Positions 1 through 64,000 of a DNA stretch of 64,000 bases are shown here, one piece after another. The stretch is from assembly GCA_036252695.1 (NCBI GenBank), contig GCA_036252695.1_4122.1; one strand, given 5' to 3'. The notes beneath the pieces are model-generated. The model made no database searches, was not told the DNA's origin, and saw nothing but the letters and a program-made list of their open reading frames with translations. The number at the start of each line of letters is the position of its first letter. Positions within the stretch are counted from its first letter, which is position 1. A program made the translations under genes and the position numbers. The stretch is from a phage.

Positions 1-255
1 CAAAATGAGCAATCAGGATTTCGTTCCATCCATGTTGAATACAAAGGTAATACTGTAGTTGCAATTATTGCTAACAAAACTCTAGGAAACTGGACTGCAC
101 AGGTTGTTCCTATGGGATATTCTTACACATCTGATGAGGTACAATTCCTGGCTGAACTATATCGCCAAGTGCCGTTTATCATTAATGTACTAGAAGGTAA
201 TGATACATTATCACATGCAGATGTGATTAATTTTCTTGGAAACTTGCATGTGTGA
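1..255 (+). CDS. 3' end of an upstream gene (partial)
   Basis: Frame-1 reading frame open from the window edge to a TGA near 253-255; no start codon inside the window. Confidence 0.35.
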   Translation, partial: QNEQSGFRSIHVEYKGNTVVAIIANKTLGNWTAQVVPMGYSYTSDEVQFLAELYRQVPFIINVLEGNDTLSHADVINFLGNLHV

Positions 256-535
256 TGAAATAAATCTTACAGGATATTTTTTACAAGAATCAATGATTAA
301 ATTTAGTGAAAAATTTTCAGTACTGGATGGTATCGAAATGTGGCATGTCAAACCACTGTTCCACACTTTCAGTAAAGAGCACAAAATGTTATTGACTGAA
401 GCGAGTAAATCAAATAACATATGTGAAATCAAAATTGGTGTAAATGTCTATAAAGGGATGGTTATCTTTTTTGACAATAACAGCAACTACTTTTATATTG
501 TTAAGGAGCATTACGTTGACAAATACAAATACTAA
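236..535 (+). CDS. hypothetical protein
   Basis: 99-aa ATG-initiated ORF on the coding strand, compact overlap with neighbours. Confidence 0.4.
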   Translation: METCMCDEINLTGYFLQESMIKFSEKFSVLDGIEMWHVKPLFHTFSKEHKMLLTEASKSNNICEIKIGVNVYKGMVIFFDNNSNYFYIVKEHYVDKYKY

Positions 536-1130
536 TACATACTTCCGTTATCTTCGCTTAGGTCTTTCCCTACGTCCGATCCGTGGAAAGTGCGATTCAC
601 TCGCTGACCTTGACTATGCATATGCATTACATCATGAAGGTGTACAGTATGTATTGGGTGATTATGGTGAATTTGAAGAAACAAATGACAGTACTGGAAT
701 TAATGCTGGTGTAGAAAATCTTAACAACATTGCTAACAGTTCTCGCCATGACATTGTGTTACAGATTCAAAACTTTATTGAGCAGCACACAGGTAAACGT
801 GTTTGGTGCTATGTCGGTACTGATGCACAAATGTCAATTTCATTCGGTAACGATGAAGGATATGTTGCACAGCTTATTATGGATTTTGAATCTGAAGAGA
901 AGTTTTTAGAATTCAAAGAAAAGATTATTCAGTCACTTGTTGATATGGGTATCCCCGAAGATAAAATGCCAGAAGTTCAAAACATTGATGAATTTGTTTT
1001 GATTCCATCTGATGAGAAATATGATGCAATGTTTACTGCTCTTAATATTCCAGGAGTTATTGTGGAGTACTTTGATGATGGTGATGATAGTATCTATATC
1101 GATCTAGATGACGATGACGACGATGAATAA
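444..1130 (+). CDS. hypothetical acidic protein (start uncertain)
   Basis: 228-aa ORF ending in a poly-Asp/Glu tail (DLDDDDDDE); the N-terminal ~30 codons overlap the previous ORF and are low complexity, so the true start is probably downstream. Confidence 0.45.
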   Translation: MSIKGWLSFLTITATTFILLRSITLTNTNTNTYFRYLRLGLSLRPIRGKCDSLADLDYAYALHHEGVQYVLGDYGEFEETNDSTGINAGVENLNNIANSSRHDIVLQIQNFIEQHTGKRVWCYVGTDAQMSISFGNDEGYVAQLIMDFESEEKFLEFKEKIIQSLVDMGIPEDKMPEVQNIDEFVLIPSDEKYDAMFTALNIPGVIVEYFDDGDDSIYIDLDDDDDDE

Positions 1131-1137
1131 TGTACAT

Positions 1138-1166
1138 AGCCCGACATAAGTTCGGGCTATTTTTGT
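1138..1166 (+). terminator. rho-independent terminator
   Basis: Hairpin agcccga-loop-tcgggct followed by a T-run, directly after the stop of the acidic protein gene. Confidence 0.5.
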
Positions 1167-1176
1167 AAGGGGATAT

Positions 1177-1452
1177 ATGAATTATAAAGTTCTACAATAT
1201 ACATACAGTGTTTTGTTTGATTTACATCACAATGGAAGATATCTCAATACAATACGAGAAAACACATTCACTCATACTATCTGGATTAATCACTTAATAA
1301 TGATACGTGAATATTTTGTTAATAGTGAGATAATCATTCGTGGTAAAAAACAGAAGATAGAACAAGTTAATAGTTTTGGTGGTAAATTAGTACTATCATT
1401 TATAGATAGTAATACTAATGAAAGATATAGTATAGATTTGGTGGACATATGA
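1177..1452 (+). CDS. hypothetical protein, small paralog family
   Basis: 91-aa ORF; shares overall pattern with neighbouring small ORFs (N-terminal aromatic-rich helix, central Gly-Lys motif). Confidence 0.5.
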   Translation: MNYKVLQYTYSVLFDLHHNGRYLNTIRENTFTHTIWINHLIMIREYFVNSEIIIRGKKQKIEQVNSFGGKLVLSFIDSNTNERYSIDLVDI

Positions 1453-1715
1453 ATTATAAAGATTTCCTACTAACATACAAGATTATTCGAGATTTAGCAC
1501 ACGACAATGATAGCCCTAGTCTAGAAGACACATGCACTGAAATGATTCATACAATTCGTGGTAAGATTAAAAAAAAATTCAGTACTGTTATTATTGGTGA
1601 TGACCATGCAGAATTTTCTGATATAATCATTAGACGTGATGGTAAAGTTGAGGTTCAGTACTACACTGATTTTGGATTTACCAGTATTCCGTTGGAGATA
1701 TTCCCTTGGGATTAA
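1449..1715 (+). CDS. hypothetical protein, small paralog family
   Basis: 88-aa ORF with ATGA stop-start overlap with the previous gene; N-terminus MNYK.. like the preceding ORF. Confidence 0.5.
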   Translation: MNYKDFLLTYKIIRDLAHDNDSPSLEDTCTEMIHTIRGKIKKKFSTVIIGDDHAEFSDIIIRRDGKVEVQYYTDFGFTSIPLEIFPWD

Positions 1716-2017
1716 ATTTAAATGATATACAATTCACTTATAAGATCCTATATGATTTGTATGATGTATACCTTGTTAGTAACAAAATAGGTTCACATAA
1801 CCCATACAAAGAACAACCATTTATTGATTTATATATTGAGTACTTAGATTCAGTAGGTGAATATATAAAAAAGAATTACAGTACTTTTATCGACGGAAAT
1901 GATATATTCGAGTTCTCTGGAGTTAAATCATACAATGGGATTATCCATGTTGAATTTCTTGAAATAACCGATAGGGGATTTATCGAGATTAAAGTTGTGA
2001 AGTTGGTGAATTTATAA
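1706..2017 (+). CDS. hypothetical protein, small paralog family
   Basis: 103-aa ORF; N-terminal LNDIQFTYK motif shared with the next ORF. Confidence 0.5.
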   Translation: MGLNLNDIQFTYKILYDLYDVYLVSNKIGSHNPYKEQPFIDLYIEYLDSVGEYIKKNYSTFIDGNDIFEFSGVKSYNGIIHVEFLEITDRGFIEIKVVKLVNL

Positions 2018-2027
2018 GAGGTTACAT

Positions 2028-62435: not shown

Positions 62436-62684
62436 ATGAAAGTTAAAATTTATGGTCGCAAGACTGGTTGTAAATTTTGCGACACTGCAAAAGCTGTATG
62501 TGAACAAAATAAATTTGAAATGGAGTTTGTAGATATTGTTGCTGAAGGTATCGATGGTTCAAAACTGTCTGAAATTTGTGGTGAACCAGTTCGTCAAGTT
62601 CCTCAAATTTTCGTAAATGACATTTATGTACCAGGTGGTTGTACTGGATTTATTGAAGGTCTTAAAGAAGGTCGTTGGAACTAA
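62436..62684 (+). CDS. nrdC: glutaredoxin-like protein (T4 NrdC-type)
   Basis: CKFCDTAK redox motif, VPQIFV and GGCTGF; colinear with T4 NrdC as recalled. Confidence 0.7.
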   Translation: MKVKIYGRKTGCKFCDTAKAVCEQNKFEMEFVDIVAEGIDGSKLSEICGEPVRQVPQIFVNDIYVPGGCTGFIEGLKEGRWN

Positions 62685-62926
62685 TGGATATTGAAAAAGT
62701 ATCATCTCGTGCAAAACAACTAGCTGATACGTTGGGAGTAGAGTTCAAAATTCCTGATATTTCAATAGCTAAAGAAAAAGCCCAGATTAAAATTAACAAA
62801 ATGAAAGAATATCTATCTAAACAAGAACAGTATGATTCGGCTGTCGAATTTATTGTAAAATCTTTTAGTAAAGATGATATTTTGGCATTTATCAAATATG
62901 TGAAGGTTTCTGGCAACCCTAAATAA
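62684..62926 (+). CDS. hypothetical protein
   Basis: ATG overlapping the nrdC stop (TAATG). Confidence 0.5.
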   Translation: MDIEKVSSRAKQLADTLGVEFKIPDISIAKEKAQIKINKMKEYLSKQEQYDSAVEFIVKSFSKDDILAFIKYVKVSGNPK

Positions 62927-62972
62927 ATGTGAAGAACAAAAAGTTCTTCTTAACAATTTGGGAGATACTATT

Positions 62973-63215
62973 ATGCTCAGTTTTCGTGAACAATTAGCAA
63001 AAGGTCAATTTCAGGCTAAAGCTCAAACTAATATTCCTAAAAAATCTGCATTTTTAGGAACAATTACGGAAGATGGATTTTGTGATTATGATGCACCAGA
63101 AGATTCATGGTACATTACAAAAGACACAAAACGCAGTAATAGACTTCACAAAAGTACAATAGCTAGAAAGCATCGAAAAGAATTAAAGAAAATCCGTTTC
63201 GGTGAAGAAGAATAA
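62973..63215 (+). CDS. hypothetical basic protein
   Basis: ATG at 62973 after GGGAG. Confidence 0.5.
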   Translation: MLSFREQLAKGQFQAKAQTNIPKKSAFLGTITEDGFCDYDAPEDSWYITKDTKRSNRLHKSTIARKHRKELKKIRFGEEE

Positions 63216-63224
63216 TTTAAAATA

Positions 63225-63253
63225 AGGACTCTGTAAAAGAGTCCTTTCTTTTC
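63225..63253 (+). terminator. rho-independent terminator
   Basis: Perfect aggactct-gtaaa-agagtcct hairpin followed by a T-run. Confidence 0.6.
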
Positions 63254-63263
63254 GGAGAATATA

Positions 63264-63740
63264 ATGATTCATGAACACCGAGGTAATCTGTTTGAATTAT
63301 TCAGTACTGTTACCGATGATCAAAATGCATTACATATTATTGCTCACGGATGTAATGCTCAAGGTAAGATGGGTTCTGGTTTCGCAAAGGAACTAAGGAA
63401 TCGCTACCCAATGGCATATGATGATTATAAAGCATATGAAAAGGAAATGGGATTTCTTAGAATTGGACAAATTGCATATTCAGCAATTAACGATAATTTG
63501 ATTATTGCAAACTGTATTACCCAAAAAATGTACGGTAATGACGGTGCTAAATATGTCAGTTATGATGCAATCGACGATGTGTTCAAACATCTAAATTATT
63601 TTTGTAAAGTTGATCGAGATGTTCATGTACATTTCCCGAAAATTGGAGCCGATTTGGGCGGCGGTAACTGGAACGTTATCAAAGAAATCATTGATCACCG
63701 TCTGGTCAATGCAGAAAAACACTTATACATTCTAAAATAA
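63264..63740 (+). CDS. macro-domain (ADP-ribose-binding/processing) protein
   Basis: HIIAHGCNAQGKMGSGFA at the position of the macro N..GGGV..A motif; C-terminal HFPKIGADLGGGNW resembles the second glycine-rich loop. Confidence 0.5.
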   Translation: MIHEHRGNLFELFSTVTDDQNALHIIAHGCNAQGKMGSGFAKELRNRYPMAYDDYKAYEKEMGFLRIGQIAYSAINDNLIIANCITQKMYGNDGAKYVSYDAIDDVFKHLNYFCKVDRDVHVHFPKIGADLGGGNWNVIKEIIDHRLVNAEKHLYILK

Positions 63741-63759
63741 ACAAAAGGACTTGACAAAA

Positions 63760-64000
63760 ATGACTATGACCGTTAAACTACTAAACATCAATAACATTGG
63801 CCCAGTACTAGCAGTTCTTCAAACCGATTCTGCTGAAGCTGTTGTAGTTAACTACCCAGCACAACTAGGGACTGACGAAAATGGTGAAATCATTCTTCGT
63901 GATTATCTAGAGTTTGTTAGTATGGAGAAAAATGTTATTTTTTATAAATCCAACATTATTAGTGTTAGTGATGCAAACCCTGCATTAGTTGATGCTTATG
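63760..64000 (+). CDS. hypothetical protein (5' part, runs off the window)
   Basis: ATG at 63760 after AAAGGA; frame open to the window end. Confidence 0.4.
   Translation, partial: MTMTVKLLNINNIGPVLAVLQTDSAEAVVVNYPAQLGTDENGEIILRDYLEFVSMEKNVIFYKSNIISVSDANPALVDAY

Follow-up and report, generated by a model that had tools for sequence, protein, structure and literature searches.

An over-represented AGTACT palindrome as a possible genome-wide protein address in enterobacterial Rak2-like jumbo phages

The window and its source phage

We examined a 64,000-nucleotide stretch of phage DNA (NCBI GenBank assembly GCA_036252695.1, contig GCA_036252695.1_4122.1; positions 1 to 64,000, hereafter the window) for the palindrome AGTACT, which an earlier reading of the letters alone (the original prediction) had singled out as strongly over-represented. 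The window shares 98% DNA identity with Asteriusvirus jumbo phages of Escherichia coli (ELP-22, phAPEC6, PBECO4 and 121Q; genomes of ~350 kb) and matches 121Q coordinates ~195-259 kb; judged by sequence, its phage is a 121Q/PBECO4-type Asteriusvirus. GC content is 33%, with positive GC skew all along, and 112 of the 118 open reading frames (ORFs) called lie on the + strand. These encode an RNA ligase, a polynucleotide kinase, a DNA ligase, a ClpP-like protease, a PhoH-like protein and an anaerobic ribonucleotide reductase, together with large fibre or tail proteins and many small proteins without assigned function. The window holds no tRNA genes.

AGTACT exceeds compositional and coding expectations

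AGTACT occurs 173 times in the window, compared with 16.7 ± 4.0 expected from dinucleotide-preserving shuffles (0 of 100 reached 173), and the extended form CAGTACTG occurs 36 times against 0.74 expected. It ranks first among all 4096 hexamers and is the sole strong outlier, the next in rank (CAGTAC and GTACTG) being its own extensions. Counting by eye, the original prediction had found about 12 copies in the first 3 kb, where we locate 13 (at 319, 690, 1066, 1389, 1581, 1657, 1839, 1880, 2250, 2369, 2603, 2817 and 2849). Every coordinate it gave is correct, including the pair at 32565 and 32583, as are its compositional estimate of about one site per 3 kb (17-21 per 64 kb) and its impression of frequent copies in the fibre genes (8 sites within 38.0-40.7 kb).

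The sites fall in all three reading frames (71 as Ser-Thr, 32 as x-Tyr and 52 as Val-Leu) at similar densities in coding (2.72/kb) and non-coding DNA (2.55/kb). Codon or amino-acid bias had been predicted to be an insufficient explanation, and the null models bear this out. Markov tables with the motif masked predict 14-19 copies. Codon shuffles give 40-57, namely 56.6 ± 5.6 (maximum 74) when synonymous codons are exchanged within genes, 49.8 when they are drawn from a global pool, and 39.6 ± 4.4 when codon order is shuffled. The codon-preserving values are themselves inflated, because AGTACT's own codons stay in the pools. A few repeated protein motifs likewise fail to explain the enrichment, since all 173 flanking contexts are unique (pairwise identity 0.287, against 0.280 for random sequence) and 87 of the 118 ORFs carry at least one site. 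Explanations from codons, amino acids or repeats are hence ruled out by the codon-preserving shuffles together with the unique contexts.

One-mismatch neighbours of AGTACT are mildly enriched (observed/expected ratio [O/E], 1.1-1.8), with the half-sites AGTACA/TGTACT among the most enriched (O/E 1.7) and AGTATT/AATACT the least (O/E 1.12). No neighbour is depleted, which rules out conversion of a specific neighbour by very-short-patch (VSP)-like repair, argues against Vsr-like conversion in general and fits the decay of selected sites. Nor is GTAC the enriched unit: only GTAC flanked by A and T is in excess, TGTACA stands at 0.8x, and GGTACC and CGTACG are absent.

Selection acts on individual sites

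Where the protein sequence leaves room for AGTACT, the motif is used far more often than codon usage predicts. In the window, 71 of 117 Ser-Thr dipeptides are spelled AGT-ACT (16.9 expected), as are 52 of 114 xxA-Val-Leu opportunities (10.1 expected) and 32 of 71 xAG-Tyr-Txx opportunities (4.3 expected). Usage of Ser-Thr opportunities is 43-60% in each genome region, structural genes included. The dipeptides themselves are enriched ~1.5x (ST, 117 versus 78 for TS; VL, 143 versus 99 for LV), and the pressure for AGTACT therefore reaches protein sequence. In 121Q, a tRNA-Ser with the unusual anticodon ACU (75,464-75,555; locus L007, 25464-25555; ARAGORN-confirmed) lies near a tRNA-Thr(UGU). It pairs with AGU, the Ser codon raised to 35-46% by AGTACT, and may be a translational adaptation to the motif.

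Orthologous positions are retained beyond background. At 97% identity, AGTACT was kept at 130 of 136 positions (96%), against 0.865 for control hexamers. At ~72% nucleotide identity it was kept at 14/25, 13/29, 12/31 and 11/23 positions (39-56%), whereas control hexamers in the same alignments were kept at 13-21% (0.15-0.19 beside these four counts; P = 4e-5 to 1e-3 per relative). Individual sites are thus under purifying selection that is weak but pervasive. Spacing is also more even than chance would give: the mean distance in the window is 369 bp, the longest gap is 1594 bp (46789 to 48383), and the coefficient of variation (CV) is 0.797, compared with 0.99 for random placement (P=0.0006). 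The same over-evenness is significant in three of four 121Q segments.

The hexamer lies at the centre of a graded, symmetric site

AGTACT forms the core of a graded palindrome of ~14 bp (TTnCAGTACTGnAA; consensus TTnC-AGTACT-GnAA). The preferences are symmetric and graded out to +/-4, with C at -1 in 45-47% of sites, G at +6 in 45-49%, and T at -3/-4 and A at +8/+9 in ~45%, and the commonest surrounding 10-mer is the perfect palindrome TCAGTACTGA (46 of 942 sites). These preferences hold in non-coding DNA and across frames, except for an explicable coding constraint in frame 1. At -1 the least frequent base is G (10%), at +6 it is C (6%), and flanks of the SlmA type are disfavoured (4 or more of the 6 flank positions match at 8 sites, versus 21.5 expected). 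A footprint so graded and symmetric points more to a DNA-binding dimer than to a restriction-modification enzyme.

The excess is confined to one clade of jumbo phages

To place the signal phylogenetically, about 41 kb around the DNA ligase gene was compared in EJP2 (Asteriusvirus), Munch (Salmonella), KP13-7 (Alcyoneusvirus, RaK2 group) and CBB (Mimasvirus). AGTACT occurs 113-178 times in these samples against 9-15 expected, and ranks first or second among hexamers in all four. The enterobacterial Rak2-like lineages they represent (Asteriusvirus, Munch group, Alcyoneusvirus and Mimasvirus) are each enriched 10-14x, so that comparison with related phages returned the same enrichment as the window. 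The preferred flanks move from CAGTACTG toward AAGTACTT in Munch and CBB. In the more distant Pseudomonas relative PA5oct (80,001-130,000; locus L014), AGTACT occurs once against 16 expected, an opposite bias of the classical palindrome-avoiding kind. It is also low in T4 (5 versus 10 expected), in a gut contig with a distant sigma homologue (4 versus 8.5) and in E. coli K-12, which has 3 copies per 50 kb (0.06/kb, compared with 2.6/kb in the phage). Because the excess is present in four lineages and not in PA5oct, T4 or the gut contig, it is a derived trait of long standing in the enterobacterial Rak2-like clade. We found no prior account of it in the literature on over-represented palindromes or on 121Q, PBECO4, RaK2, CBB, phAPEC6, Sharanji and fEgEco12; a genome-wide phage "address" of this kind is probably undescribed, as far as the searchable literature shows.

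AGTACT is densest in terminal repeats and sits on early promoters

121Q carries 769 AGTACT sites in ~300 kb (2.58/kb), distributed unevenly: 1.5-2.6/kb in replication and structural regions and 6.4/kb at 130-155.5 kb. By its placement, this hot zone corresponds to the ~21-kb direct terminal repeat (DTR), which was positioned by coordinate offset to the ELP-22, fEgEco12 and vB_Ec-M-J records, all beginning at the experimentally confirmed left end. The DTR measures 20,993 bp in fEgEco12, with its left end confirmed experimentally (PMC13070987), and 20,668 bp in Sharanji. The annotated terminal repeat of CBB (1-22,456) is likewise its densest part (6.37/kb versus 3.86/kb).

The terminal repeats hold small early genes with individual sigma70-type promoters that incorporate AGTACT. 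In the CBB repeat, 13-14 dual-site promoters have the form AAAAGTACT-TGCAA-N10-AGTACT-t-TATAAT, in which one site abuts the -35 element and the other ends 1 nt before the -10 element, their starts lying 21-22 bp apart. This geometry is conserved between 121Q and CBB; the spacer between the paired sites is not. Promoters of 121Q come in dual-site and single-site versions, and across 353 promoter-like sequences the site most often starts at -7/-8 from the -10 hexamer, a peak found in 121Q and the window. Ending 1 nt before that hexamer, the site is out of register for a true extended -10 (TGn) element, a role that is ruled out accordingly.

Also within the 121Q repeat, a 2-kb non-coding region (135.2-137.2 kb; locus L008, 35150-37250) contains ~20 mostly full-consensus sites, iteron-like repeats with an 8-bp period (GATGGCTAGA...), GTAATCA repeats and a duplicated 69-nt unit. 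Its layout looks like that of an origin, an injection-stop or a nucleation region. Directly left of the repeat is an array of ~15 paralogous genes with RCC1 repeats (annotated "regulator of chromosome condensation"; 117-131 kb, minus strand; locus L008, 17089-31255). Directly after it comes an AGTACT desert of 4.1 kb with one site (155,502-159,569; locus L009, 5502-9569), where ORFs are tiny and tightly packed and both GTAC and synonymous opportunities are scarce (3 Ser-Thr and 9 Val-Leu), unlike in the ACT-free island described below.

Several features of the window show the motif in comparable settings:

1..64000, no strand assigned: 173 dispersed AGTACT sites, 36 of them as CAGTACTG (counts, spacing, unique contexts).
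1..8000, no strand assigned: densest part of the window, with 33 sites (4.1/kb; 17 and 16 per 4 kb) among small + strand ORFs of unassigned function (counts; homologous ELP-22 annotation).
22925..22953, + strand: sigma70-like promoter with TTGACT at 22925-22930, AGTACT at 22941-22946, 1 nt, and TATTAT at 22948-22953, upstream of the ORF at 22989-23597 (sequence context).
32565..32588, + strand: terminator-like hairpin with AGTACT arms, AGTACTGC-N8-GCAGTACT followed by a T-run, between the ORFs at 32201-32560 and 32607-33221 (sequence).
37920..43961, + strand: two ORFs of ~900 aa (the predicted fibre genes; hypothetical in ELP-22) with 16 sites in all three frames (counts, annotation).
60295..60323, + strand: two AGTACT sites 23 bp apart, the first 4 nt 3' of TGAAACG (sequence).

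The promoter at 22925..22953 has an architecture like that of the terminal-repeat early promoters of 121Q and CBB, and TGAAACG is the -35-like element of the clade's second promoter class (PMC5259590, the CBB paper). In the hairpin, two AGTACT copies can form the stem because the motif is self-complementary; the stem has 8 pairs, including 4 GC pairs, and 2 terminator-like matches were found against 0.1 in shuffles. Here AGTACT doubles as a component from which ordinary regulatory elements are built. Separately, the protein encoded by the DNA ligase gene (15918-17336) is 99.8% identical to that of 121Q and only ~92% identical to those of ELP-22 and the other closest relatives. Since these relatives are otherwise the nearest (98% DNA identity overall), this points to a mosaic, recombinant segment.

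An ACT-free island and a GCGC void accompany the excess

On the sense strand of 121Q (NC_025447), 161,804-169,313 (locus L009, 11804-19313) contains not a single ACT in 7,511 bp. Under a Poisson model a gap this long has an expectation of 1e-53, and none of the other trinucleotides came close to this in the sequences examined. AGT, the reverse complement, occurs there at normal frequency, and no other ACT-poor ORF was found among 605. The island is kept in PBECO4 (7,620 bp; locus L016, 710-8328) and vB_Ec-M-J (8,458 bp, 72-88% identical; locus L018, 771-9227), and conservation in three independently sequenced genomes at 72-92% identity rules out a record artefact. Pooled over the three islands, ACT occurs 0 times versus ~430 expected, whatever the neighbouring bases; TCT is depleted ~3-fold, and CCT, GCT and TACG occur at normal levels. 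It follows that ACT (or ACU) is read on one strand by some process at work in these phages, one that cannot be tolerated in the island.

Within the island AGTACT is replaced by AGTACA, of which there are 41-49 copies (5.5/kb), spread over all three frames and flanked by the bases that AGTACT prefers. Position 6 is always A (41 of 41 sites, never AGTACC or AGTACG), the orientation is uniform (41 versus 0), and 40 of 46 positions are conserved between 121Q and PBECO4 (P=9e-5). The AGTACT function is evidently worth keeping even where ACT is forbidden, in AGTACA as its nearest form without ACT, and this favours graded, duplex-level recognition of AGTACT together with a separate single-strand reader, for which an ACU-specific mRNA interferase, a primase or a nickase are candidates. 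A specificity of the MazF-SEA type (UAC[U/G]) is ruled out by the unavoided TACG. The island boundaries gave no clear promoter or terminator signals, and its uncharacterised proteins of ~170 aa matched no DNA-binding domain in Pfam or PHROGs. Elsewhere, the terminal repeats of 121Q and CBB encode a conserved 84-aa protein with a ParE/RelE-superfamily toxin domain (PF24732, E=3e-10; 121Q 150,456-150,710, g305, locus L009, 456-707; CBB gp037, 13,941-14,183). Sequence comparison gave no relative of solved structure. The protein may be a toxin that shuts off the host early, and it is a candidate link to the ACU-free island.

The original prediction had noted that palindromes are usually depleted, and for several other palindromes this proves true, which makes AGTACT stand out all the more. 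GCGC, counted in the window and all clade loci (L002-L011, L017, L018), is absent throughout: 0 versus 155 expected in 121Q, 27 in the window, 72 in CBB, 30 in EJP2, 25 in Munch and 12 in KP13-7. It is normal in PA5oct (47 versus 55) and T4 (65 versus 65), and E. coli has 327 per 50 kb (6.5/kb). GGCC, CCGG, GATC and CATG are depleted as well (GATC O/E, 0.5-0.6), and the window lacks GGTACC, CGTACG, CTGCAG, CAGCTG and other GC-rich hexamers. The GCGC void and the AGTACT excess follow the same clade boundary, and the ACT-free island shares it or falls inside.

Search for the reader protein

Candidates for a protein that reads AGTACT were sought among the phage genes. The clade encodes a C5-cytosine methyltransferase (PF00145) and a Dam-like N6-adenine methyltransferase (PF05869), both orphan and conserved, the gene for the latter being syntenic in 121Q, EJP2, Munch, CBB and RaK2. 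The phyletic pattern of the Dam-like enzyme is uninformative, the family being too widespread among phages (1793 PF05869 records), and a signature of m5C deamination at AGTACT was looked for and is absent. Annotated endonucleases are of homing type (CapR/Hef-like, HNH and GIY-YIG); no cognate endonuclease or MutH-, MutS- or SeqA-like gene was recognised among the phage annotations, and no ParB, Noc or TetR-family gene was recognised either. fEgEco12 DNA is cut normally by ten enzymes, including EcoRI, HindIII, NsiI and ClaI; ScaI is not among them (PMC13070987). The only annotated regulator, CBB_511 (HTH_37), was rejected as the partner, having no homologue in 121Q or the window. Neighbours of the sigma factor, small virion proteins and proteins conserved in the DTR, like those of the island, contain no DNA-binding domain by Pfam or PHROGs. 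The sigma factor itself is co-distributed with the clade, but so would be any clade-specific gene.

What AGTACT may be for

Equal density in coding and non-coding DNA, occurrence in all frames, symmetric flanks, promoter positions and conservation at 2-3x controls support selection at the DNA level well, as the original prediction had proposed. Among the functions it listed, binding is the one we favour, in the form of a symmetric protein; modification is possible, and nicking, packaging and recombination found no direct support. Our leading, although tentative, proposal is that AGTACT may be the binding site of a symmetric (dimeric), sequence-specific protein and serve as both a genome-wide address and an early-promoter operator. 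It starts from the enrichment, selection, symmetry, promoter geometry and clade distribution observed above. From these we infer that the reader is a protein dimer, where it originates and what its two functions (operator and genome-wide) are: it would be conserved across the enterobacterial Rak2-like jumbo phages, is probably phage-encoded and is possibly delivered with the virion. Bound at the operator-like sites of terminal-repeat sigma70-type promoters, it would switch early transcription on or off, and the 2-kb non-coding region with its ~20 consensus sites may act as a nucleation centre. Sites every ~370 bp make phage DNA ~40x richer in targets than host DNA, so that the phage chromosome would be the one that the protein chiefly coats, organises or marks. 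The benefit of any single site would be small, giving weak pervasive purifying selection, turnover and even spacing. Tolerance of AGTACA in the island also speaks for affinity-based recognition and not for an all-or-none enzyme site.

Several points weigh against this proposal. The partner protein was not found among the candidates screened: no helix-turn-helix (HTH), ribbon-helix-helix (RHH) or ParB-type protein is annotated or detectable in ~57 of ~600 genes. A repressor needs only tens of sites, which leaves the genome-wide role a pure inference, and the promoter sites could partly reflect a favoured word piling up in unconstrained sequence. Helical phasing of close site pairs was looked for and gave no clear signal. 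Lastly, the strand-specific purge of ACT is a single-strand reading that a duplex-binding dimer does not explain.

It is rather unlikely that AGTACT is instead an epigenetic mark, the target of one of the orphan methyltransferases (PF05869 or PF00145), with full versus hemi-methylation telling injected or old DNA from new, timing early promoters and supplying a GATC-like strand or age mark every few hundred bp. Both enzymes are present and the Dam-like gene is syntenic across the clade; the depletion of GATC makes a substitute mark conceivable, even spacing without long gaps would fit a coverage requirement, and the sites overlap promoter elements, like those of known methylation-sensitive promoters. 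RaK2 DNA has moreover been reported to resist many restriction enzymes (PMC3622015), although that of fEgEco12 is cut normally. PF05869, however, is widespread in phages without an AGTACT excess; graded ~14-bp flanks and AGTACA retention would be unexpected for a methyltransferase site; C-to-T decay is not seen, AGTATT/AATACT being the least enriched neighbour; and MutH-, MutS- or SeqA-like genes are not annotated. For a primase start site, the strand-specific lack of ACT in the island is an indirect hint. T4 primase uses the trinucleotides GTT and GCT, with a cryptic 3' T. If a T4-type primase here read 5'-ACT-3' (3' T cryptic), AGTACT would template pppGUACU, the palindrome would serve both strands, and dense, even spacing would secure lagging-strand priming. 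This would match a single-strand ACT reader (no ACT on one island strand over 7.5-8.5 kb in three genomes, with TGTACT kept at 5.5/kb on the opposite strand), a hexamer made of one cryptic and five templating bases, even spacing with no gap > ~2 kb outside the deserts, the enriched AGTACA/TGTACT half-sites and the gp61/gp41 homologues of the clade (PMC5259590). Nonetheless, we consider it unlikely: ACT alone, at ~20 copies per kb, would never leave priming sites in short supply; the fixed positions at -35/-10 and the invariant island A at position 6 (41/41) are left unexplained; a total purge implies harm from single sites, which priming on the leading-strand template does not cause; and for the preferred upstream triplet to be ACT's own reverse complement would take a 1-in-64 coincidence.

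A purge on the sense strand only is also the pattern expected of escape from an RNase. AGUACU might be cleaved or bound by an endoribonuclease (host MazF/PemK-type or phage-encoded) that governs mRNA turnover, with the ACU-free island messages escaping. AGUACU includes U^ACU, a site cleaved by the enterobacterial MazF-SEA (PMC10864209), the early-gene region is the densest in AGTACT, and the terminal repeats of 121Q and CBB encode the ParE/RelE-superfamily domain (PF24732). But an RNA signal gives no reason for a DNA palindrome with symmetric flanks, for sites as dense in non-coding DNA and upstream of transcription starts, or for dense AGUACA in the island without a cleavable ACU, and the unavoided TACG misfits MazF-SEA; we regard it as decidedly unlikely. 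Very unlikely in our judgment is a role for the host, in which the sites would bind or titrate an Enterobacterales DNA-binding protein. One such protein is the nucleoid-occlusion factor SlmA, whose site GTGAGTACTCAC has an AGTACT core; we know of no other host factor with such a site. The restriction of the excess to Enterobacterales phages, with its reversal in PA5oct, and an effective sink of ~950 sites per genome times many copies would suit this idea. Such binding or titration could also explain why Sharanji-infected cells filament, with phage DNA filling the cell (PMC11895373). Despite that filamentation, SlmA binding is ruled out by the disfavoured flanks (8 versus 21.5 expected), and flanks differ among clade members on related hosts (CAGTACTG versus AAGTACTT), which suggests a co-evolving phage partner. 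Highly improbable, finally, is a non-functional molecular drive by biased repair, gene conversion (very-short-patch-like) or mutational bias that keeps creating AGTACT. Enrichment everywhere, independent of gene class, and mildly enriched near-cognate words are as expected around a constantly created, decaying word; yet, in contrast to CTWGG under Vsr repair, none of its neighbours is depleted. Orthologous retention across deep divergence, shaped dipeptides, over-even spacing and promoter placement that stays fixed while spacers diverge all oppose it, and the same arguments led to a verdict of selection for Highly Iterated Palindrome 1 (HIP1) of cyanobacteria (PMC5861425).

A speculative extension, to which we attach a small likelihood, is a purely sequence-encoded self-identity system without bulk base substitution. 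AGTACT (~40x denser than in the host) would be its positive mark, and the phage protein reading it would recruit phage DNA or protect it. The GCGC void (0 versus 6.5/kb in E. coli) would be its negative mark, letting a phage nuclease destroy host DNA, and messages of the ACU-free operon would survive a phage- or host-encoded ACU-specific RNase. Whatever probability remains belongs to something not yet imagined.

Comparison with known systems

The closest analogue is HIP1 (GCGATCGC), of which AGTACT is a viral counterpart. HIP1 is 15-300x over-represented, lies in and between ORFs in all frames, is clade-specific and is conserved at orthologous positions; no peptide-, RNA- or gene-level explanation was found, and a part in the structure of the chromosome or nucleoid has been suggested for it (PMC5861425). 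AGTACT resembles it in its excess of at least 10-fold, its occurrence in all frames and intergenic DNA, its conservation beyond background and its limitation to a clade. It differs in belonging to a virus clade and not to cellular genomes, in being a hexamer core with a graded ~14-bp footprint and not an octamer, and in its early-promoter place and terminal-repeat peak; for HIP1, a 10-90 kb periodicity of motif density has been reported in cyanobacteria.

Dispersed palindromic dimer sites of 12-16 bp that give DNA identity or position, namely those of SlmA (SlmA-binding sequence, SBS), Noc (Noc-binding site, NBS), ParB (parS) and MatP (matS), are comparable in kind but number tens per chromosome, compared with ~950 AGTACT per 350 kb, and the GTG...CAC flanks of the SBS are disfavoured here. 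The dual role suggested for the AGTACT reader, genome coating plus early-promoter control, has precedents in phi29 p6 and SPO1 TF1, abundant phage proteins that bind the whole viral genome over host DNA and repress early promoters. These recognise DNA shape, supercoiling or hydroxymethyluracil and not a discrete palindromic word, and no p6 or TF1 homologue was identified, so the resemblance is functional only. Chi, the DNA uptake sequences DUS/USS and KOPS are likewise short words at ~1 per kb, found in genes in all frames and read by a DNA-processing machine or for self-recognition. They are asymmetric and orientation-dependent, whereas AGTACT is a perfect palindrome and only the island AGTACA is oriented (41 versus 0). 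AGTACT is also the hexamer of ScaI, in phages that encode orphan methyltransferases, but restriction targets are normally avoided and this one is 10-fold enriched; even coverage like that of GATC in the Dam-SeqA-MutH system is conceivable for it. As with operators, it takes a fixed position on core promoter elements in several promoters; a cognate conserved regulator was not found among the ~57 candidate proteins screened.

Implications for jumbo-phage biology

Palindromes are normally purged from phages, and here a clade of 350-kb phages keeps ~950 copies of one, spending coding freedom and even amino-acid choice on it. So many retained copies imply that something central to the biology of jumbo phages reads this DNA. 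The phages concerned build no nucleus-like compartment, and among them fEgEco12 has DNA that the standard restriction enzymes tested cut normally. The system offers a direct experimental handle through oligonucleotide bait (e.g., TTTCAGTACTGAAA), ScaI and long-read tests and promoter mutants. As simple sequence signatures, AGTACT, the GCGC void and the ACT-free island allow the clade to be recognised in metagenomes, and they are relevant to engineering or recoding therapeutic jumbo phages. With a small genome, E. coli and its relatives as hosts and sites that can be recoded, the clade provides a tractable viral counterpart to the 25-year-old puzzle of HIP1.

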